DNA from: Isobaculum melis
Lineage (GTDB): Bacteria; Bacillota; Bacilli; Lactobacillales; Carnobacteriaceae
Assembly (NCBI RefSeq): GCF_900111355.1
Contig: NZ_FOHA01000025.1
Location: 1-24,000, forward strand
Direction of reading: 5' to 3'
Length of the DNA stretch: 24,000 bases
The position numbers and the translations under genes are program-made. The first letter of the stretch is position 1; each line of letters starts with the position of its first letter. The notes beneath the pieces were generated by a model that ran no database searches, was not told the DNA's origin, and was given only the letters and a program-made list of their open reading frames with translations. Positions 5,048 to 16,673 of the stretch are shown here, in pieces.

Positions 5048-5316
5048 TTAGAAGCCTCCTATATAGTCTCTATTTCGTTAATTGGGTAAATTAAACCACA
5101 CCTATCATAACAAGTAGGATGCTTTCAAGCAATCGAATTTGCAATTTGTAAGCTAATTGCAATGTATGTAACGTAATAGAGTATCTTTTTTATGAATAAT
5201 TTTTGTAGAATCAAAGAGTCATTTATTTATCTCAATCATGTGCTTTGCTACTGTGACAAATCATAATTTATGATAAAATGATAGATATCATGTGAAATAG
5301 AAAGAGGCGTTTGAAT

Positions 5317-5673
5317 ATGATTCATGCAAAAGTAGTTGAAATTGGAAAACAAGCTATTAGTCAAAAAGATCCAATGATTATTTTATTTGGCGAAACAGCA
5401 ACAGCTGAAATTAAAAAAGTTGCGGTGATACAAGAATTTAAGGAAGGAATTCCTAATGAAGCTTTACGTGTTGGAGGAGAAGTGGCCTTTGGAGAGCAAG
5501 TCTATCACATTCAACGTGTGGGTTCTCTTGCCAATGAAAATCTGCAATCCATTGGACATGTGACACTGATTTTTTCAGATATCCCTGAAGAAGATGTCCT
5601 TGAAAATGCACTTTATTTATCACCAAAAGAATTGCCTAAAATTGATTTGGATACAGAAATTAAGTATAGTTAA
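5317..5673 (+). CDS. PTS glucitol/sorbitol-type EIIA-like protein (orphan)
   Basis: Colinear with E. coli SrlB as recalled, for example VAFGEQVYHIQRVGSLANENLQSIGHVTLIF versus FSLGQHRYPVTAVGSVAEDNLRELGHVTLRF. The putative phospho-His lies in GHVTL. The ORF track starts at TTG 5311, but the RBS AAAGAGG (5301-5307) is better spaced for ATG 5317. Confidence 0.65.
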   Translation: MIHAKVVEIGKQAISQKDPMIILFGETATAEIKKVAVIQEFKEGIPNEALRVGGEVAFGEQVYHIQRVGSLANENLQSIGHVTLIFSDIPEEDVLENALYLSPKELPKIDLDTEIKYS

Positions 5674-7928: not shown

Positions 7929-7952
7929 CAATATACATTTAAATGTATATTG
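7929..7952. promoter_or_regulatory. Operator-like perfect 24-bp palindrome, copy 1 (CAATATACA-N6-TGTATATTG)
   Basis: CAATATACATTTAAATGTATATTG equals its own reverse complement, verified base by base. Confidence 0.55.
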
Positions 7953-7994: not shown

Positions 7995-8020
7995 TCAATA
8001 TACAAAATATTGTATATTGA
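7995..8020. promoter_or_regulatory. Operator-like palindrome, copy 2 (same CAATATACA-N6-TGTATATTG half-sites)
   Basis: TCAATATACAAAATATTGTATATTGA has 11-bp arms and a 4-nt centre. Its half-sites are identical to copy 1, and the two centres are 67 bp apart. Confidence 0.55.
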
Positions 8021-8082: not shown

Positions 8083-8143
8083 AGCGAGAATCAACAAATT
8101 TAGTCAGTCATAATCAACAGAATAGATTAAAGGAGGAAAAAGT

Positions 8144-8506
8144 ATGAAAACAATTGTAGTCGGAGGACAAATTGATAAACCAGAAGTAAAAACACTAGTT
8201 GAGACATTAGCAGCTGGACAATTTAATGTAGAAGTGAAAAGTGATTTAGAAGCAGCTATGGCTGTGAAATCAGGGGATGCTGACTATTATGTAGGCGCTT
8301 GCAACACTGGTGGTGGCGGAGCTTTAGCAATGGCATTAGCATTATTAGGACATGATCAATGTGTCACCGTTTCAATGCCAGGTAAAATGATGGAAGAAAC
8401 GAAAATCCGTGAGGAAGTACGTAGTGGTAAAAAAGCTTTTGGTTTTACAGCACAAGATAAAGAAAAAGTGATTCCTATTTTAATGGATGAATTAAAGCAA
8501 TTATAA
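8144..8506 (+). CDS. yhfU: DUF2620 family protein (YhfU-like)
   Basis: 120-aa soluble ORF with a strong RBS (AAAGGAGG). It has a beta-strand start (MKTIVVGG) and a Cys/Gly-rich loop (YYVGACNTGGGGALAMALA) characteristic of YhfU/DUF2620, as recalled. Confidence 0.75.
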   Translation: MKTIVVGGQIDKPEVKTLVETLAAGQFNVEVKSDLEAAMAVKSGDADYYVGACNTGGGGALAMALALLGHDQCVTVSMPGKMMEETKIREEVRSGKKAFGFTAQDKEKVIPILMDELKQL

Positions 8507-8532
8507 AAAGTATGTTGGAGGTATAAGAAATC

Positions 8533-9846
8533 ATGGATACATCAAAAATTATTGAGTTATTAGTCGTGGGAGCATTAGGTGCCCTGTGTTCAATCTTAGC
8601 AAATAGAGGGATTGCCGTTTTTAATGATGGCTTACGTCCAGTTGTTCCTGAATTTTTAGAAGGAAAAATTGGTAAAAAAGAAATTGCAGCAACAAGCTTT
8701 GCTTTAAGCTTTGGTTTAGTCATTGGTTTTGGGATTCCGGTTTCAATTGGTGCTTCTATTATTCTGGTTCATAGTATTTTACTAGCAACAGATATTATTG
8801 GTAGCTGGTCACCAGTTGGCAAAAAAGGCATCATTATTGCTGGTGTTGTTGGGGCAGCTTACGGTGTCGGAATTACACTAGGTTTACAAGCAGTTGTTGA
8901 TTTATTTGCGAAAATGCCAGTGGACTTCTTACCTTCATTAGCAATGGTAGGGACACCAGTCGTTGTGGCCTTCTCAATTTTCCCAGCAGTAGCAATTGCC
9001 TATCAACATGGCTTTAAAAAAGGTGCGATTTCATTTGCGCTTGTTGGTTTAACATTATTTGCAGTGAAAAAATTTGGTACATTCACTTTAAGTGGTGGCA
9101 CAACATTCACTTTAAGTGCAGAAGGTATGTCTTTACTTGTTGGAATGATCCTCATGATTATCTTCGCAGTTGGTGTGAAAGGTGATGGAGATGCTAACCA
9201 AAACTTAATGAGTATCTTTATGGAACGTGTAAACCGTATTAAAAAGAACTGGATTCTTTTATCAGCTGTCGGTGGTTTAGTCAGTGCAGCAACAAGTCTT
9301 TTAATGATTGCAGGCGACCCAATTTCGCTAAATCTTTTAAGTGATGGAAAATATAGTGAAGCAGCGTTAGCAGCATTTGCTCGTGGGATTGGTTTTATCC
9401 CATTAGTATTCTCAACAGCAATTGTAACAGGTGTTTACAGTCCAGCTGGAACAACCTTTGTTTTTGTAGTGGGTATTTTACTAAGAGGCAACCCAATCTT
9501 AGCATTTGTGGTTGGTGCGCTTGTGATGTTTATTGAAATCATGTTATTAAACGGTATGGCGAAAGGGTTAGATAAATTCCCTGGCGTTCGTGAAATGGGC
9601 GAACATATCCGTACTTCTATGAATAAAGTCTTAGAAGTTGCCTTACTTATTGGTGGTGCTATGGCTTCTGAAGCAATGGCACCAGGTATTGGTTACTTCT
9701 GGGTCATTGGTTTGTATCTATTAAATAGAACAGCGAAGAAACCACTTGTTGATTTAGCAGTTGGACCAGTGGCAGCAATTGCCTTAGGTATTATTGTGAA
9801 CATTCTTTATCTAGTCGGTTTATTCACTCCTGTTGTAGCAGGTTAA
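8533..9846 (+). CDS. yhfT: YhfT-like polytopic membrane protein (putative permease)
   Basis: 437-aa ORF with about 10-12 hydrophobic segments, 26 nt after the yhfU-like gene. Its size and position match E. coli YhfT. Confidence 0.75.
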   Translation: MDTSKIIELLVVGALGALCSILANRGIAVFNDGLRPVVPEFLEGKIGKKEIAATSFALSFGLVIGFGIPVSIGASIILVHSILLATDIIGSWSPVGKKGIIIAGVVGAAYGVGITLGLQAVVDLFAKMPVDFLPSLAMVGTPVVVAFSIFPAVAIAYQHGFKKGAISFALVGLTLFAVKKFGTFTLSGGTTFTLSAEGMSLLVGMILMIIFAVGVKGDGDANQNLMSIFMERVNRIKKNWILLSAVGGLVSAATSLLMIAGDPISLNLLSDGKYSEAALAAFARGIGFIPLVFSTAIVTGVYSPAGTTFVFVVGILLRGNPILAFVVGALVMFIEIMLLNGMAKGLDKFPGVREMGEHIRTSMNKVLEVALLIGGAMASEAMAPGIGYFWVIGLYLLNRTAKKPLVDLAVGPVAAIALGIIVNILYLVGLFTPVVAG

Positions 9847-9864
9847 AGAAAGGCGTTATCGTAA

Positions 9865-10863
9865 ATGAAAAAAACAGTCAAAGAATTTGCCAAAGCAACG
9901 ATGTTGGCGTATCAAAACCCGTATCACAGCGTAGCATACATTGCTCCCCCAGCATTTGATGAAGCCTGTCAGCAATTAGAAGCTGATTTAACACCGTTTT
10001 ATTTTGGTGTGAAAGAGACCCCTGTTTTAAATCCATGTCAAATGGCTTTGTCTGAAGCAGGTATGATTTTTCATACAATTGATAAAATGTCGGATCATGG
10101 TCGGGCGATTGATACAACTTTGGTAAATCCTTTAACTGGAAGAAGTATGACAGGTTCTTCAAGTGGAACAGCTATCAATGTTTTGCTTGGCATGAATGAT
10201 ATTGGGATTGGCAGTGATGGGGGTGGGTCTGTACTTGCTCCTGCCATGGCACTGCAATTATATGGCTTGATTCATCCAGCATTACCCGTGGTAAAAGTTA
10301 AAAAGCAATCAACTGATAACTTAACCTTTACCCCATCAGCAGGTTTCATTACTAGAAATTTTGCTTGTTTAGCAAAAGGTCTGGCTGTTTTTGATTTAAA
10401 GCCTGAAATGACAGCGATTAAAGTAGCCATTCCCAAAGGCTTAAGCCAGGAATTCTTAGCAGATTTGGCCCCTCAACTTTCAGCGTTGATCTCACTCGTG
10501 GAAGTTGACTATCCAGATTGTACGGCTGAGCGTTCCAAATTAATCCCTTGGCTTGAGCAAATGATGCAGCAATATGATGTAGTGATTTCACTGGAAGGGC
10601 CTATTGATACTTCTTCATATGGAGACTCTCTATTAGGAAGTTTTAGCGAACTTAGAAGTGCGGCACAGCAAGAAAGTGGTAAAGGCTTATTAAGAATTGT
10701 GAATATGCTTGATTTAGTAGGCCTAACCATTCCCTATGATGATTTGGCAAAAGGGCTATTATTGATTGCAAACCCAGCCAAAACAAGTGCGATTTTAGCC
10801 ATTGCACAAGCAGTTCAACCACTGATTCCAGAATTGGTTCAGCGTTATTTTCATAAGAAATAG
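9865..10863 (+). CDS. Compact amidase-signature (AS) family-like protein
   Basis: 332-aa ORF. The segment TGSSSGTAINVLLGMNDIGIGSDGGGSVLAPA parallels the AS consensus GGSSGGSAAAVA...GTDTGGSIRIPA. S98 to S122 is 24 residues apart, the usual cis-Ser to nucleophile-Ser spacing. A candidate catalytic Lys lies in FGVKE (K50). Confidence 0.6.
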   Translation: MKKTVKEFAKATMLAYQNPYHSVAYIAPPAFDEACQQLEADLTPFYFGVKETPVLNPCQMALSEAGMIFHTIDKMSDHGRAIDTTLVNPLTGRSMTGSSSGTAINVLLGMNDIGIGSDGGGSVLAPAMALQLYGLIHPALPVVKVKKQSTDNLTFTPSAGFITRNFACLAKGLAVFDLKPEMTAIKVAIPKGLSQEFLADLAPQLSALISLVEVDYPDCTAERSKLIPWLEQMMQQYDVVISLEGPIDTSSYGDSLLGSFSELRSAAQQESGKGLLRIVNMLDLVGLTIPYDDLAKGLLLIANPAKTSAILAIAQAVQPLIPELVQRYFHKK

Positions 10864-10875
10864 GAGATGATTAAG

Positions 10876-11754
10876 ATGCCATTAGTAGATGGAATGACAT
10901 TGATGCACGAACACACAACAATTGATTTATCAGGTGTGAAACAAAATGATGATTGTAATTTAAACTGCTTTGAAGAAACCATTAAAGAGTACCAAGTTCT
11001 TTATGAACAAGGGATTCGTAATATTGTAGATGTCACTGTTATGGGGATGAAAAGAAACCCAGAATATGTTAGAAAAGTGGCGGAAGCTTCTGGTATTCAT
11101 ATCATCCAAGCGACAGGTTGCTATACGGAGCGTTTCCTACCAGATTTTGTTGAAACAGATACCATTGAAGCTTTAGCAGAACGAATGATTCAAGAAATTG
11201 AAGTAGGTATTGATGGTACGGATATTAAAGCTGAAATTATTGGTGAAATTGGTTCAAGTAAAAATCAAATGACACCAAAAGAAACAAAAGTTTTTGAAGC
11301 TGCAGTATTAGCACATAAAAAAACAGGTAAGCCGATTACTACACATACAACCTTAGGGACTTATGGACATGAACAAATTGAATTCTTTAAAGAACGTGGC
11401 GTGGATTTATCACGTGTAGTCATTGGTCATGTAGACTTAAGCGGCAATGCTGATTATGTTTTGCATATGCTAAAAGAAGGCGTCTATGTAGAATTTGATA
11501 CCGTTGGCAAAGAGAACTATATGCCAGATCAAACACGTTTAGAAATGTTATTAAAAATTCAAGAAGCAGGCTTTACAGATAAAGTTTTTCTTTCATTAGA
11601 TATCACACGTAAAACAAATATGGCTTATAAAGGTGGTATTGGCTATCATTATTTAATGGATACATTTGTCCCTATGTTACGTGCTGGCGGCATTGAAGAA
11701 AGCTTTATCGAAAAAATGTTGGTGCATAATCCTCATACTTTTATGAACCAATAA
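10876..11754 (+). CDS. php: Phosphotriesterase-homology protein (Php/YhfV; amidohydrolase superfamily, COG1735)
   Basis: It carries the HxH motif (LMHEH), then E in IIGEIG, H in ITTHTT, H in VIGHVD and D in LSLDITR, which is a full Php-type binuclear metal site. The ORF track starts at ATG 10867, but that codon abuts the RBS AGGAG (10862-10866). ATG 10876 gives 9-nt spacing and a 292-aa product. Confidence 0.85.
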   Translation: MPLVDGMTLMHEHTTIDLSGVKQNDDCNLNCFEETIKEYQVLYEQGIRNIVDVTVMGMKRNPEYVRKVAEASGIHIIQATGCYTERFLPDFVETDTIEALAERMIQEIEVGIDGTDIKAEIIGEIGSSKNQMTPKETKVFEAAVLAHKKTGKPITTHTTLGTYGHEQIEFFKERGVDLSRVVIGHVDLSGNADYVLHMLKEGVYVEFDTVGKENYMPDQTRLEMLLKIQEAGFTDKVFLSLDITRKTNMAYKGGIGYHYLMDTFVPMLRAGGIEESFIEKMLVHNPHTFMNQ

Positions 11755-11773
11755 AAAAAGGAAGATATAAACT

Positions 11774-12871
11774 ATGGAAACTTATCCTTTAACAAGTTTA
11801 ACAATTGAAGAAGCAACACAAAAACAGTTTGCATTAGTTGATGCAATTACCAAAGAATTTAAAGGCTCAGAAATTTTAACACGTGGTGACTTAGGCGTAG
11901 TTCCTGGACTAAATCAGCCTAAAACGACACATCAAGTAGAAAAAGTACTCGCCAATTTCTTTGATGCTGAAGCAGCAATGTTAGTGCGTGGTGCGGGTAC
12001 AATGGCCATTCGTTTGGCGATGCATGCAGTACTGAAAGCAGGAGATACGCTACTTGTTCATGATGCACCAGTTTATCCAACAACACAAACATCTATTGAA
12101 ATGATGAATCTCAAGGTGATTAAAGCCGATTTTAATGATCTCGAAGCAGTTAAAGCAGTAGCTGCAGCTTCAGACATTCAAGGAGCATTGGTTCAATTTA
12201 CCCGACAAAAACCAGATGACTCTTATGATATTGGAGAAGTGATTGCAGCAATTCAAGCTGTGTTGCCTGACTGTCCCATTATTACTGATGACAATTATGC
12301 GGTCTTAAAAGTACCACAAATTGGTTCAGAGCTAGGTGCGACAATGGCTTGCTTCTCAACCTTTAAATTATTAGGTCCAGAAGGTGTTGGGTGTATTATT
12401 GGCTCAAAAGTAGCGATTGCTAAGCTAAGAAAAGAAAATTATTCAGGTGGGCTACAAGTACAAGGCTTTGAAGCGATTGCAGTTCTTCAAGGATTGATTT
12501 ATGCCCCAGTTGCGTTAGCGATTTCTGCTCAAGTGAGTGGAAAAGTTTGTACGCGACTAAACAATGGTGAAATACCTGGTGTCAAAAAAGCCTTTATTGC
12601 CAATGCACAGTCAAAAGTGTTGCTGATTGAATTAGAGGAAGCCAATGCCAATGAGGTATTAATTGAAGCCGAAAAATTAGGCGCGGCACCAAATCCAATT
12701 GGCGCTGAATCAAAATATGAATTTGTCCCAATGTTTTACCGCCTATCAGGTACATTTAGAGCAGCCAATCCCAAAGCATCTGAATCAATGATTCGTGTCA
12801 ATCCAATGCGTTCAGGTGAAGAAACAGTCTTACGTATCTTAAAAGAAGCGATCCTAAAAGCTGCGAAATAG
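11774..12871 (+). CDS. yhfS: Fold-type-I PLP-dependent enzyme, YhfS-like (SelA/DgaE-related aminotransferase class-V fold)
   Basis: 365-aa ORF. The putative Schiff-base lysine sits in FSTFKLLGPEG (K198, AAA at 12365-12367), similar to the S-x-x-K-x-L-x-GP motif of class V/SelA-like enzymes. A DDNYA motif lies upstream. Confidence 0.75.
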   Translation: METYPLTSLTIEEATQKQFALVDAITKEFKGSEILTRGDLGVVPGLNQPKTTHQVEKVLANFFDAEAAMLVRGAGTMAIRLAMHAVLKAGDTLLVHDAPVYPTTQTSIEMMNLKVIKADFNDLEAVKAVAAASDIQGALVQFTRQKPDDSYDIGEVIAAIQAVLPDCPIITDDNYAVLKVPQIGSELGATMACFSTFKLLGPEGVGCIIGSKVAIAKLRKENYSGGLQVQGFEAIAVLQGLIYAPVALAISAQVSGKVCTRLNNGEIPGVKKAFIANAQSKVLLIELEEANANEVLIEAEKLGAAPNPIGAESKYEFVPMFYRLSGTFRAANPKASESMIRVNPMRSGEETVLRILKEAILKAAK

Positions 12872-12880
12872 CTTTTGCTA

Positions 12881-12910
12881 TTGACTAACGGGAGAGACTA
12901 TCCTTACAAT
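12881..12910 (+). promoter_or_regulatory. Candidate internal promoter ahead of the regulator block (TTGACT-18-TACAAT)
   Basis: -35 TTGACT (12881-12886), an 18-nt spacer, and -10 TACAAT (12905-12910), located in the only long gap (122 nt) inside the cluster. Confidence 0.4.
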
Positions 12911-12918
12911 AAAATTAG

Positions 12919-12964
12919 GACGTGTCTGAAAAATTCAAATGCTACTGTAGTTTTCTGACACGTC
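12919..12964. promoter_or_regulatory. Strong inverted repeat/hairpin upstream of the yhfZ-like gene
   Basis: GACGTGTCTGAAAA (12919-12932) pairs with TTTTCTGACACGTC (12951-12964). That is 14 bp with one mismatch and an 18-nt loop, extendable by 4 weaker pairs. The upstream flank is A-rich, so it looks like a terminator only when read on the minus strand. Confidence 0.5.
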
Positions 12965-12993
12965 TTAACAAAAAAAGAGTCGAGGGATGCAAC

Positions 12994-13917
12994 ATGAATG
13001 AACATTTTTATCAAAAAACCGGAATTGTCATTACTTGGTTGGCAAGAGATTTAATGCAATTAAAAAAAGGGGATAGAATGCCCATTATTAGCGACTATCA
13101 ACAACAGTTTGACATTTCGAGAGGCACCGTGCAGAATGCGTTGCAATTCCTGAAAGATAAAGAAGCTATTGAGACAATTAGTAAAGGTCATTTAGGGACA
13201 TTCTTAAGTGAAGTAAACTATGAAGTTCTACAGCAATATGCGATTTCTGACTATGTTGTAGGGACCATGCCATTACCTTATTCTCGCTTATATGAAGGCT
13301 TTGCTACAGGATTATATCAAAACTTTAGTGACCATCAAATGCGTTTGAATATGGCTTATGTACGAGGTTCAAAAGACCGGATTCAATCAGTGGTTAATGG
13401 TGTGTATCATTTTGCAGTCGTCTCAAAATTTGCAGCAATGGAAGCCATCCGTCGTGAGGCTCCAGTTGAACAGATTATTGACTTTGGACCTTATACCTAT
13501 TTGTCTAGGCATATCTTATTATTTGCGGAAGCACAGCAAAATCAGATTGAGGATCAAATGCGTGTAGGCATTGACAATAGTTCCTATGACCAACAAACCT
13601 TAACACATGAAATTACCAAAAATAAGCAAGTTGAATTTGTAGAAATGCCAGGCCATCAATTAATTTATGCCTTAAAAGAAGGCGTCATAGATGCAGGTGT
13701 TTGGAACTATGATGAAATTGTGGATAAAAATTACCAAGATTTAAATTATCGCTTTATAGAAGAAAGTCAGCTGCAATTAGATATGAGTACCGCAGTGATT
13801 ATTTGCCATAAAGAGGATGCTATTTTTAAAACCGTCTTAAAGAAAAATATTGATCAACAAGCGTTATTAGCAACGCAAAAACAAGTATTAGAGGGGAATT
13901 TGATTCCTCGCTATTAA
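12994..13917 (+). CDS. yhfZ: YhfZ-like transcriptional regulator (GntR-type winged HTH plus YhfZ C-terminal ligand-binding-like domain)
   Basis: It has a GntR-like HTH (ISDYQQQFDISRGTVQNALQFLKDKEAIE). The ORF track begins at GTG 12922, inside the hairpin and without an RBS. ATG 12994 is preceded by GAGGGA at 6-nt spacing and gives 307 aa. Confidence 0.75.
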   Translation: MNEHFYQKTGIVITWLARDLMQLKKGDRMPIISDYQQQFDISRGTVQNALQFLKDKEAIETISKGHLGTFLSEVNYEVLQQYAISDYVVGTMPLPYSRLYEGFATGLYQNFSDHQMRLNMAYVRGSKDRIQSVVNGVYHFAVVSKFAAMEAIRREAPVEQIIDFGPYTYLSRHILLFAEAQQNQIEDQMRVGIDNSSYDQQTLTHEITKNKQVEFVEMPGHQLIYALKEGVIDAGVWNYDEIVDKNYQDLNYRFIEESQLQLDMSTAVIICHKEDAIFKTVLKKNIDQQALLATQKQVLEGNLIPRY

Positions 13918-13936
13918 AAAGATGGAGCGATGAAGA

Positions 13937-14278
13937 ATGATTCAAGAAAAATTAACAGTCTTAAAGACAGCAAACGTGATTGATGAAGCTGTTTACCAAT
14001 ATATGCAAGAAGTATTAAGTGTTTTAGAAACCAAAGAGTTAGTAGAAAAGTCGGAGGTTTTTATGACGCATTTAGCCATGGCGACTGCTCGTCAGCAAAA
14101 AGGTGAGAGCGTTGGCGCATTAGATGCATTGATTGTTGAACAAATGAAAGCAGAAACGCAATACGAAGAAGCAGTTGCGATTTGGCATGAATTAGCGGCT
14201 CTTGCTCCTGTTACATTTCATGAAGATGAGCTAGCATACCTTTATTTACACCTTTGTACCATGCTAGCAGAAGATTAG
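13937..14278 (+). CDS. yhfY: Stand-alone PRD-domain protein (YhfY-like)
   Basis: 113-aa all-helical ORF carrying both canonical PRD histidine contexts: FMTHLAMATAR (H45) and DELAYLYLHL (H105). It has no RNA-binding or DNA-binding domain. Confidence 0.7.
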   Translation: MIQEKLTVLKTANVIDEAVYQYMQEVLSVLETKELVEKSEVFMTHLAMATARQQKGESVGALDALIVEQMKAETQYEEAVAIWHELAALAPVTFHEDELAYLYLHLCTMLAED

Positions 14279-14290
14279 GGGGCGTGATTC

Positions 14291-15448
14291 ATGTTTTTGG
14301 AAGCAACGAAAAGAAGAAATCCTAAAATGATTGAAACGGCTATTCAGCTACATCAACAAGGAACGGTTTTACCAGATACCTACATTTTAGATTTAGATAT
14401 GATTGAAGCGAATGCAAAGCAAATGCTTGAAGTTGCTAAGCAGCATCAAGTGGAATTATTTTATATGACCAAACAAATTGGGCGCAATCCTCTTGTAGCT
14501 AAAAAATTAGCTGAATTAGGGATGAGTCATGCAGTTGTTGTGGATTTTAAAGAAGCGCTTGTCATGATGGAGAATGGTTTACCAATTGGAAATGTTGGGC
14601 ATTTAGTACAAGTACCACAGCATTTACTTGAAAAAATCATGATTTATGGTGCAAAATATATTACTGTTTACTCAATGGAAATGCTTGTAAGTATTCAAAA
14701 AATAGCGAAAAAGCTTGGCAAAAAGCAAGCTGTTCTGCTGAAAATGGTTGGTGAGGATGATCAATTATATCCAGGTCAATATGGTGGGTTTTTACTAGAA
14801 GAAGTGGCACAGCACTTTCCTGCGATGAAAGCTTGTGATTTTGTTGAGATTAAAGGTATTACCTCATTTCCTTGTTTCTTATACCAAGCGGATACCCATG
14901 AATTAGAAGCAACCCATAATGTCAAAACCATTCAACAAGCGAAAGCCTTATTTAGTGAAGCTGGCTTTAACTTAGCTGAATTAAATGTGCCATCTGCGAC
15001 TTGTTCAAGAACGATTCCATTTATTCAATCATTTGGTGGGACACAGGGAGAGCCAGGACATGCATTGACTGGGACAACACCTATGCATGCATTAACTGAT
15101 TTACCAGAAAAACCAGCGATGGCTTATATCAGCGAGATTTCTCATACATTTAAAGGTCAAAGTTATCTTTACGGAGGCGGTTATTACCGTAGAGGGCATT
15201 TAGAAAATGTACTAATTGATAACCAAGGAACCAGAACCCTAGGAAAGGTTGCCCCTTTTGCTGATGAAAACATTGACTATTATTTAGAAGTTGATGGTGA
15301 ACAGCCTGTTGGCGCAACTGCTATTATGGCTTTTAGAACACAAATTTTTGTGACACGAAGCGAGGTTGCAGTTGTTTCAGGCATTCAATCGGGTAAACCA
15401 AAAGTAGAAGGTATTTATGACAGCCAAGGGAAATTTTTGAGAAGGTGA
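14291..15448 (+). CDS. yhfX: Fold-type-III PLP enzyme, alanine-racemase-N-terminal-domain family (YhfX-like)
   Basis: 385-aa ORF. The likely PLP lysine lies in FYMTKQIGRNP (K61), in the position of the alanine racemase VVKANAYG lysine. A C-terminal beta domain is present. Confidence 0.75.
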   Translation: MFLEATKRRNPKMIETAIQLHQQGTVLPDTYILDLDMIEANAKQMLEVAKQHQVELFYMTKQIGRNPLVAKKLAELGMSHAVVVDFKEALVMMENGLPIGNVGHLVQVPQHLLEKIMIYGAKYITVYSMEMLVSIQKIAKKLGKKQAVLLKMVGEDDQLYPGQYGGFLLEEVAQHFPAMKACDFVEIKGITSFPCFLYQADTHELEATHNVKTIQQAKALFSEAGFNLAELNVPSATCSRTIPFIQSFGGTQGEPGHALTGTTPMHALTDLPEKPAMAYISEISHTFKGQSYLYGGGYYRRGHLENVLIDNQGTRTLGKVAPFADENIDYYLEVDGEQPVGATAIMAFRTQIFVTRSEVAVVSGIQSGKPKVEGIYDSQGKFLRR

Positions 15449-15452
15449 AAAT

Positions 15453-16673
15453 ATGGGAAGATTTATTGTCATTGTATTAGATAGTTTTGGTGTCGGCTAT
15501 ATGGCGGACGCAGCAGAGGTGAGACCACGTGATGTGGGTGCGAATACGGCATTACACATTATTGAAAAAAAGCCTGAAATTCAGATTCCGACTATGGAAA
15601 AATTAGGATTAATGAATGCGATTGGACAGGAAACAGAAGCGTTACATTTTTCTAAAGAGGCAATTATTGGAACTGCTAATTTAGCCCATCATGGCGCGGA
15701 TTCATTTTTAGGCCATCAGGAGATTATGGGGACTACGCCTAAAATCCCTTTAATTGAACCCTTTCAAGCAGTGATTGATACAGTCGAACAACATTTGATT
15801 GAAGCAGATTATCAAGTGCGTCGTGTAGGTGAAGCAGGCGAGCCACAAATTCTAGTTGTCAATGAGTGTGCAACTGTCGGAGATAATTTAGAAACCGATT
15901 TAGGGCAAGTTTATAATGTTTCTGCTTGCTTGGATTTAATGCCTTTTGATGAAGTGAAGCAATTAGGTAGAACCGTTCGTGAAGTGGTCAAAGTTTCTCG
16001 AGTGATTACGTTTGGTGGGAGACAGATTACTTTAGATAATCTACTTGGTGCAAGAAAAATTAAACCAGGTGGCTTTGCAGGTGTTGATGCACCAGAGTCA
16101 GGTGTTTACTTGCATGACTACCATGTGATTCATTTAGGCTATGGCATTGATCCTGAAGTTCAAGTGCCGACAATCTTGGATCATGCGGGCATTACTGTTT
16201 CTTTACTTGGAAAAGCTGCAGATATTATTCAAACGTCTAGCAAACATTTATTTCCAGGCGTGGATTCAACTGAGTTATTTGATGACTTGGTAAGTGAAGT
16301 GAAGAAAATTAATGAAGGCTTTATTTGTTTGAATATTCAGGAAACTGATTTAGCGGGACATGCTGAGGATGTAGCGCGTTATGCAGATAGATTGGAACTG
16401 AGCGATAAACGGATTGCAGAAGTTATTTCTTTACTGAATACGGGGGATATTTTAATTGTGATGGCAGACCATGGGAATGACCCAACCATTGGACATAGTA
16501 ACCATACGCGTGAACGTGTACCTTTAATGATTTATAGCAAAGGTTTAGCAGGAATTGAAGTAGGAGAAAGAGAAACAATGGCAGATGTAGCCGCAACTGC
16601 AGCGGATTATTTTGGTGTGAAGATGCCACAACATGGTCATTCTTTCTTGGATAAAATAATCAATCGTTCATAA
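15453..16673 (+). CDS. yhfW: Phosphopentomutase-like metalloenzyme (YhfW-like; alkaline-phosphatase superfamily mutase)
   Basis: 406-aa ORF with DeoB-like motifs: VLDSFGVG (metal Asp), GHQEIMG, ETDLAGHAED, ADHGNDPT and HTRERVPL. Confidence 0.8.
   Translation: MGRFIVIVLDSFGVGYMADAAEVRPRDVGANTALHIIEKKPEIQIPTMEKLGLMNAIGQETEALHFSKEAIIGTANLAHHGADSFLGHQEIMGTTPKIPLIEPFQAVIDTVEQHLIEADYQVRRVGEAGEPQILVVNECATVGDNLETDLGQVYNVSACLDLMPFDEVKQLGRTVREVVKVSRVITFGGRQITLDNLLGARKIKPGGFAGVDAPESGVYLHDYHVIHLGYGIDPEVQVPTILDHAGITVSLLGKAADIIQTSSKHLFPGVDSTELFDDLVSEVKKINEGFICLNIQETDLAGHAEDVARYADRLELSDKRIAEVISLLNTGDILIVMADHGNDPTIGHSNHTRERVPLMIYSKGLAGIEVGERETMADVAATAADYFGVKMPQHGHSFLDKIINRS

Follow-up and report, generated by a model that had tools for sequence, protein, structure and literature searches.

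YhfU, a predicted RpiB-fold protein with a conserved cysteine loop, and the membrane protein YhfT: a tentative link between the yhf operon and the phosphotransferase system

In a window of 24,000 nucleotides from Isobaculum melis (positions 1 to 24,000 of contig NZ_FOHA01000025.1, the whole stretch of DNA analysed here), two adjacent genes, yhfU and yhfT, encode a 120-residue protein with a cysteine in a glycine-rich loop and a polytopic membrane protein. What does this pair do, and is it a phosphorylating permease? An initial annotation had proposed a two-component system modelled on Enzyme IIB (EIIB) and Enzyme IIC (EIIC) of the phosphoenolpyruvate (PEP)-dependent phosphotransferase system (PTS). 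Our analysis points, tentatively and at somewhat less than an even chance, to an unconventional PTS-linked module of YhfU, YhfT and the PRD-only protein YhfY that heads the yhf operon and would phosphorylate its cargo on entry. The parts of the original proposal that stand are the genomic link to the PTS, the conservation of the cysteine, and the coupling of the three proteins; the EIIB fold and the similarity to EIIC were not borne out. The features on which the argument rests are the following, in positions of the window.

yhfU, 8144-8506, forward strand: 120-residue protein of family DUF2620 with a predicted RpiB/LacAB-like alpha/beta fold
Cys/Gly loop, 8294-8326, forward strand: residues G51-L61 of YhfU (GACNTGGGGAL), at the end of strand 3 and running into the N-terminus of a helix
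yhfT, 8533-9846, forward strand: 437-residue polytopic membrane protein (PF10797), for which fold searches gave no relative
yhfY, 13937-14278, forward strand: 113-residue PRD-only protein (PF00874)

The open reading frame of yhfU begins with MKTIVVGG, ends with a stop codon at 8504-8506, and is preceded by a ribosome-binding site, AGGAGG, at 8131-8136. After a gap of 26 nucleotides, yhfT starts with the ATG at 8533 and has a GGAGG site of its own at 8517-8521; the lengths, the N-terminus and the spacing are all as first annotated. Both genes stand at the front of a row of co-directional genes on the forward strand across 8144-16673, and this row, from yhfU to yhfW, is a conserved nine-gene operon for nutrient breakdown (catabolism).

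YhfU belongs to family DUF2620 (PF10941; E = 2.6e-45, 153.7 bits against a cut-off of 25, covering profile positions 2-114 of 115). The family is small: of 1.84 billion cluster representatives searched exhaustively, only 134 proteins matched, 67 of them near-full-length. The cysteine proposed as phosphoryl acceptor, C53 (codon TGC at 8300-8302), does lie in the Cys/Gly loop, within YYVGACNTGGGGALAMA, and it is well conserved, contrary to the first of the outcomes named at the outset as refuting the proposal. Among the 67 near-full-length representatives, clustered at 50% identity, C53 is kept in 64, position 55 is threonine or serine in 65, and G51, G56, G58, L61, and G69 are near-invariant, while in 31 close YhfU homologues the entire run G51-A52-C53-N54-T55-G56-G57-G58-G59-A60 is invariant. 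Across the family, the loop follows the pattern G-x-C-x-[TS]-G-x-G-G-A-L. C53 had been described as the only obvious reactive residue, but a further cysteine of YhfU, C73, is retained in 43 of the 67 representatives.

YhfU and YhfT are also tightly paired. A scan of species genomes located 272 yhf loci, of which we fetched and counted 80. All 80 contain both yhfU and yhfT, and in 76 of them yhfT is the next gene after yhfU. Homologues of YhfY were found by jackhmmer in 76 loci; tblastn placed YhfY in 58, and clustering of the flanking genes identified divergent PRD proteins in 21 more. Php and YhfS are each present in 77 loci, YhfX in 73, YhfZ in 72, YhfW in 71, and the amidase-like gene in 66. 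The YhfU-YhfT pair also persists where the enzymes change, for example beside an MttB protein and a corrinoid protein. Conservation of the yhf/php operon extends over Firmicutes, spirochaetes, Thermotogae-like, and Fusobacteria-like genomes. No kinase family recurs among the conserved cluster or flank genes of the 80 loci, though YhfW belongs to the phosphopentomutase family.

The evidence that ties this operon to the PTS comes from YhfY and from the genes that accompany it. YhfY matches the PRD model PF00874 with 28.8 bits against a cut-off of 23, and it is, as the initial annotation had it, a PRD-only protein with both histidines: H45 is present in 77 of 77 homologues and H105 in 74 of 77, with R52 and E98 invariant. 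PRD and DUF2620 also occur fused in a single protein. There are two such fusions, independent of each other and opposite in domain order: one has DUF2620 first (P0185, on three JGI contigs), and the other has the PRD first (P0376, on at least five contigs of three ENA samples, where the yhf operon is otherwise of the standard type). At one locus (L002), yhfW, yhfX, and the genes for HPr, Enzyme I, and an aldolase come next after the fusion gene, and their starts and stops overlap or nearly abut. In a Treponema metagenome-assembled genome (MAG; L073), the genes for HPr and Enzyme I directly follow yhfW, this Enzyme I is the sole one of the assembly, and searches for EIIC of PF02378, PF03611, and PF03609 and for EIIA-Man found none in it. 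HPr and Enzyme I adjoin the yhf cluster in a Thermotogae MAG (L082) as well. Outside Lactobacillales, Enzyme I is encoded in 48 of 50 yhfU genomes, and one of the two genomes without it has an Enzyme-I-like tblastn match on the yhf contig. The baseline is 57 of 150 genomes sampled evenly from the class to which one yhfU member belongs, a comparison that overstates the enrichment because kin genomes are not independent, which makes it supportive rather than statistical proof and to that extent counts against us. The yhf operon is probably wired to the PTS phosphotransferase relay.

The module that we favour would operate as follows. A phosphoryl group would pass from PEP through Enzyme I to HPr, and from HPr to a histidine of YhfY, either H45 or H105. 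YhfY would exchange the phosphoryl with C53 of YhfU, where the glycine-rich loop and the helix N-terminus could cradle it, and phosphorylated YhfU would then dock on YhfT and phosphorylate the substrate during its entry. The phosphorylated product would go on to the phosphomutase-family protein YhfW, Php, the pyridoxal 5'-phosphate (PLP) enzymes YhfS and YhfX, and the amidase-like protein. Every phosphotransfer step of this module, and the phosphorylation of the cargo itself, is one that we infer. A further-reaching version, possible in our judgement and on the doubtful side, is that YhfY, YhfU, and YhfT make up an unrecognised PTS Enzyme II family, in which the PRD-only protein would stand in for EIIA as the histidine carrier, the shortened RpiB-fold protein for EIIB as the cysteine carrier, and YhfT would be a permease with a fold that no solved structure has yet shown; on that principle, the SFCGS/DUF4311/DUF4310 systems, described below, would form its sister family.

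A number of results weigh against this module, the fold of YhfU among them. The AlphaFold2 model (pLDDT 96.4, pTM 0.90) has five strands alternating with helices, in which C53 closes strand 3 and the glycine run (G-G-G-G-A) opens into the start of a helix. A Foldseek search against the PDB ranked RpiB enzymes at the top (E = 9e-4, TM-score of about 0.7, at 0.72). VIA-align likewise aligned about 20 RpiB/LacAB entries at Z-scores of 12-13 and a root-mean-square deviation (rmsd) of 2.2-2.5 Å over 108-112 of the 120 residues, including a match at Z 12.8 and 2.3 Å over 111 residues. EIIB proteins and low-molecular-weight (LMW) phosphatases, the folds expected from the original proposal, do appear among the matches at Z 6-8, well below the RpiB/LacAB entries: the best PTS IIB, 3czc, reached Z 8.0 over 86 residues, IIB-cellobiose 1iib Z 6.4, LMW phosphatases Z 7.1-7.3, and the EIIB-like domain of MgaSpn Z 6.7, with receiver domains also among the weaker matches. 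In EIIB proteins of the Lac, Gat, and Asc types, the phospho-cysteine follows strand 1. The loop after strand 1 of YhfU has no cysteine, and the conserved cysteine, residue 53, is at the end of strand 3. Hidden Markov models (HMMs) of EIIB (PF02302) and other PTS families gave no match to YhfU up to E = 10, where its Pfam matches consist of PF10941 and a weak PF14272 only, and a sequence search of PDB chains returned nothing under E 0.1.

YhfU does have features in common with the EIIB proteins of the Lac/Chb and Gat/Asc types (PF02302; 3czc, 1iib) and with LMW phosphotyrosine phosphatases. It is a small Rossmann-like alpha/beta protein, its strand-end cysteine is followed by a glycine-rich, helix-capped loop, and its genomic context is that of the PTS. 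It differs from them in carrying the cysteine after strand 3 rather than strand 1, in having no HMM match, and in having a membrane partner that is not an EIIC. On the strength of the model, the predicted kinship is confined to a common alpha/beta arrangement with the cysteine at a different strand end, and YhfU is best described as a shortened RpiB-fold protein outside every known EIIB family. Calling the loop EIIB-like, as was done at first, does not fit this fold.

The same structural matches bring up the possibility that YhfU is an enzyme. RpiB proteins have a catalytic cysteine and threonine; an Asp-His pair follows their strand 1, and Arg/His residues of a C-terminal helix bind the phosphate of the substrate. 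In profile comparison, C53 and T55 of YhfU coincide with the catalytic loop, C-G-T-G-x-G, of RpiB, which speaks against a phosphoryl carrier and for a soluble, minimal isomerase or epimerase of the RpiB/LacAB type that acts on an intermediate of the yhf pathway. C53 would then be the base, T55 a proton shuttle, and the glycine loop an oxyanion hole, with YhfT as a secondary carrier and YhfY limited to PTS-dependent catabolite control. We consider this rather unlikely. It is favoured by the close agreement with RpiB/LacAB structures (PF02502; 3k7p, 3s5p, 2vvr, 4lfk) in the alpha/beta fold and in the Cys-x-Thr/Ser-Gly-x-Gly loop after strand 3, by a weak match of the SFCGS HMM to a LacB gene, by the existence of a Php-YhfU fusion (P0135), and by the additional transporters encoded at two loci (L133 and L134, described below). 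The similarity in sequence is nevertheless marginal, as hhalign gave E = 1.5e-4 with a 19-sequence profile and 0.009 with a single sequence, and the PF02502 HMM did not match YhfU up to E = 10. YhfU is about 30 residues shorter than RpiB/LacAB proteins, and after strand 1 (residues 2-6) it has G7-G8(-Q9) where RpiB has Asp-His. Aligned by hhalign, YhfU reaches to about position 126 of the 147 in the RpiB profile, leaving the C-terminal helix with its phosphate site beyond the end of YhfU. An isomerase also leaves the PRD fusions in both orders without a reason, and unlike RpiB/LacAB genes those of YhfU keep company with a membrane protein and a PRD protein, a company that YhfU retains when the enzymes change. 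The Php-YhfU fusion may reflect a lost stop codon; its sources are two read assemblies, in one of which yhfZ is split, and we down-weighted it as Rosetta-stone evidence. Two other fusions (P0196 and P0250) look like frameshift chimeras.

For YhfT, the results are equally unfavourable to a familiar permease. Its match to PF10797 is full length (E = 3.8e-169, 563.7 bits against a cut-off of 26.1) and is its sole family match up to E = 10. The same search returned no EIIC family (PF02378, PF03611, PF03609, PF03608). The AlphaFold2 model of YhfT (pLDDT 85, pTM 0.85) agrees with the ESM Atlas model of the family (TM-score 0.95). Against the PDB, Foldseek gave TM-scores that are all below 0.3, and the best VIA-align match among 48,161 representative chains, at Z 6.4, is at the level of noise for helical proteins. 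Searching the ESM Atlas by shape returned YhfT itself only, and searching it by features returned no named neighbour. EIIC proteins are absent from the Foldseek and VIA-align lists, though with a model of 437 residues a domain-level match could escape. The sequence found nothing under E 0.1 among PDB chains, and its N-terminal and C-terminal halves show no internal repeat. In these searches, YhfT, proposed as an EIIC, showed no similarity to any EIIC family HMM or any solved fold. We infer a transport role for YhfT because it is polytopic and because of its genomic context; no solved transporter is like it. Co-folding of YhfU with YhfT gave a score of 0.00 in a run without controls, and this carries no weight either way.

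Some of the genomic contexts also count against the module. No EIIA is conserved in the yhf cluster. The Treponema MAG encodes four PtsN-like EIIA proteins that may be alternative clients of its Enzyme I and HPr, and in the Thermotogae MAG a canonical EIIC lies 4 kb beyond the adjacent Enzyme I. Three loci add conventional importers. At L120, a PRD-DUF2620 pair of overlapping genes is followed by an SBP_bac_5 ABC system; at L133, a complete sugar-type ABC importer is translationally coupled to PRD-DUF2620-YhfT; and at L134, two APC permeases stand immediately ahead of the YhfU-YhfT pair. Such extra importers are not obviously needed if YhfT is itself the permease, and a role in regulation or as a cytoplasmic kinase fits these contexts no worse than that of a permease.

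A regulatory role would make YhfY and YhfU a split phospho-sensor, comparable to the PRD and EIIB(Gat)-like domains of MtlR, LicR, and Mga-type regulators, that controls YhfZ or gates YhfT or other transporters and hands no phosphate to a substrate. Regulators that combine PRD and EIIB-like domains are established. In agreement with this, some lineages physically couple the PRD to a small cysteine-bearing alpha/beta domain in fusions of both orders, the PRD and DUF2620 genes overlap beside the ABC importers of L120 and L133, the EIIB-like domain of MgaSpn is among the weaker fold matches, and YhfZ, a separate helix-turn-helix (HTH) regulator that lacks a PRD of its own, is encoded next to YhfY. 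The yhf components differ from these regulators in that they are on separate genes, have no EIIA-like domain, and include in YhfU a protein whose fold is far nearer to RpiB than to EIIB(Gat)-like domains. A sensor would account neither for the near-universal adjacency of yhfU and yhfT nor for the missing kinase beside a phosphomutase-family enzyme, and HPr and Enzyme I within the operon would be an unusual investment for mere regulation. We regard this explanation as unlikely. Very unlikely, by comparison, is a PTS-dependent cytoplasmic kinase of YhfY, YhfU, and YhfT on the analogy of DhaKLM, in which the substrate would enter by ABC, APC or YhfT and then be phosphorylated by phosphorylated YhfU: conventional importers are co-encoded in some lineages, the cluster has no conserved kinase, and Enzyme I and HPr are linked to it, but the proteins show no similarity to the DhaK, DhaL or DhaM families and the ever-present YhfT would have no role in the many loci without another transporter.

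A second family bears on the preferred PTS-linked module, since YhfU has a relative in the Gly_rich_SFCGS family (PF14272). Against the HMM of this family, YhfU scores 13.6 bits at E = 0.07, where the cut-off is 27.3 bits. hhalign, comparing the two family profiles, aligned DUF2620 and SFCGS over their full length with the cysteine loops in register, at 90-92% probability and E-values of 1.6e-6 and 9e-8, and SFCGS clusters are the nearest to YhfU by language-model features. Because YhfU is under the gathering score of the HMM, yet the profile comparison shows homology, DUF2620 is placed as a sister family of SFCGS rather than within it. The SFCGS genes lie in PRD/DUF4312/DUF4311/DUF4310 clusters of the EF_0829-0839 type, which are as uncharacterised as the yhf cluster. 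In the cluster that we examined (L114), a PRD-containing regulator and a 115-residue protein with no Pfam match are encoded ahead of the SFCGS gene, and after it come DUF4312, the membrane proteins DUF4311 and DUF4310, an EIIC, a MupG-like enzyme, an amidohydrolase, a SelA-like PLP enzyme, a KDGP aldolase, and a PfkB kinase. Its architecture parallels that of the yhf cluster: beside the cysteine-loop protein it encodes a PRD protein and polytopic membrane proteins, together with an amidohydrolase and a PLP enzyme of the SelA-like kind. It is unlike the yhf cluster in its additional DUF4312, KDGP aldolase, and PfkB kinase, and in membrane partners without detectable similarity to YhfT; the kinase is a further point against a module that phosphorylates its own cargo. 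hhalign of YhfT with DUF4311, DUF4310, and DUF4312 gave E-values of 0.5-0.6 over shallow alignments, that is, no detectable relation. The idea that these three are counterparts of a split YhfT gained nothing from this comparison, and we discarded it.

After 60 years of work on the PTS, the list of its Enzyme II families is, to our knowledge, considered closed. If the PTS-linked module is real, it would extend that list by a family assembled from unexpected folds, add a role to those of PRD domains, explain where phosphorylated intermediates come from in pathways without a kinase, and provide a handle on the yhf/php operon of E. coli, which has long been an orphan. Should YhfU instead be an RpiB-type enzyme or a sensor, a fold and an active site would still have been assigned to DUF2620 and SFCGS. 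YhfU and YhfT both fall in families that are already catalogued, though without an assigned function, and the counterpart of the cluster in E. coli is the orphan yhf operon. Our literature search found no functional study of DUF2620, of E. coli yhfU or yhfT, or of SFCGS; under the names yhfU and yhfT, it returned mostly unrelated genes of Bacillus and Staphylococcus, mainly related to biotin or CoA.

The other genes of the operon, together with two further features that lie 5' of it, are listed here.

amidase-like gene, 9865-10863, forward strand: assigned by Pfam / NCBIfam
php, 10867-11754, forward strand: amidohydrolase, assigned by Pfam / NCBIfam
yhfS, 11774-12871, forward strand: fold-type-I PLP enzyme, with weak SelA-type matches
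yhfZ, 12922-13917 as listed, forward strand: HTH regulator, assigned by Pfam / NCBIfam
yhfX, 14291-15448, forward strand: PLP enzyme, assigned by Pfam / NCBIfam
yhfW, 15453-16673, forward strand: phosphopentomutase family
gutA-type PTS EIIA, 5311-5673, forward strand: orphan (PF03829, E = 3e-31), nearby, membership in the operon not supported
palindrome CAATATACA-N6-TGTATATTG, two copies, 7929-7952 and 7996-8019, no strand assigned: found by repeat search, candidate operator

The neighbours that had been predicted, namely Php, a phosphomutase-type protein, and a PLP enzyme, were all found, as Php, YhfW, and YhfS, the last with weak SelA-type matches. The E. coli K-12 cluster, yhfZ-yhfY-yhfX-yhfW-php-yhfU-yhfT-yhfS, has eight families in common with this operon and likewise has yhfU directly before yhfT; equivalence is indicated by NCBIfam YhfZ_full and by PRK09875/PRK12383 equivalog-type matches. 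In I. melis, by contrast, the gene order is rearranged, with yhfU and yhfT first, and the amidase-like gene is added. A control search for DUF2620 matched in E. coli only.

The gutA-type EIIA had been put forward as a possible partner of YhfU, a suggestion that the survey does not support. It is absent from 80 of 80 yhf loci and present in 3 of 50 yhfU genomes, and we rejected it as a general phosphoryl donor. It is the only PF03829 gene in this 100% complete genome, which has no glucitol EIIC (PF03608) or EII-GUT, and it is flanked by a TarS/Glyphos_transf-like gene and a gene for an AI-2E family transporter.

Upstream of the operon, the two palindrome copies have their centres 67 bp apart and lie about 125-215 bp 5' of yhfU; they may be the operator of the cluster's regulator. 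Searches of this upstream region for cre-like sites and with Rfam gave nothing better than chance, and a terminator search of the operon interior found none that was convincing. Apart from this, the match of the NCBIfam YhfZ_full model begins at residue 27 of the yhfZ open reading frame as listed, and because of this the true start is probably the ATG at 12994 rather than the GTG at 12922.

Genes found beside the operon elsewhere may give some indication of its substrates. Two extras recur among the 80 loci: a beta-lactamase-family lipoprotein, in 18 of them, and a nucleoside-hydrolase-like protein, in 10. The former often follows yhfW (e.g., L057:11227-12615), while elsewhere a DmpA-type Peptidase_S58 protein is encoded (L130:17558-18535). 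Because these beta-lactamase and S58 genes occur together with the amidase-like and alanine-racemase-like genes, they hint at a substrate with an amide linkage or a D-amino acid. In one metagenomic lineage (L121:4175-6257 and L122:877-2959), the set of yhfS, PRD, DUF2620, and YhfT genes includes those for a corrinoid protein and an MttB-family methyltransferase, and on this account there is a hint that some members of the family handle a methylated or quaternary amine.

Finally, two arrangements depart from the usual layout of the pair. Two Negativicutes-type loci (L069 and L076) encode two YhfT paralogues, which share about 59% and 41% identity with the query, and one YhfU, whose gene is positioned after the second yhfT gene and not before it. 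In the Clostridium paraputrificum group (L081 and L083), an insert of about 1.8 kb separates yhfU from yhfT.

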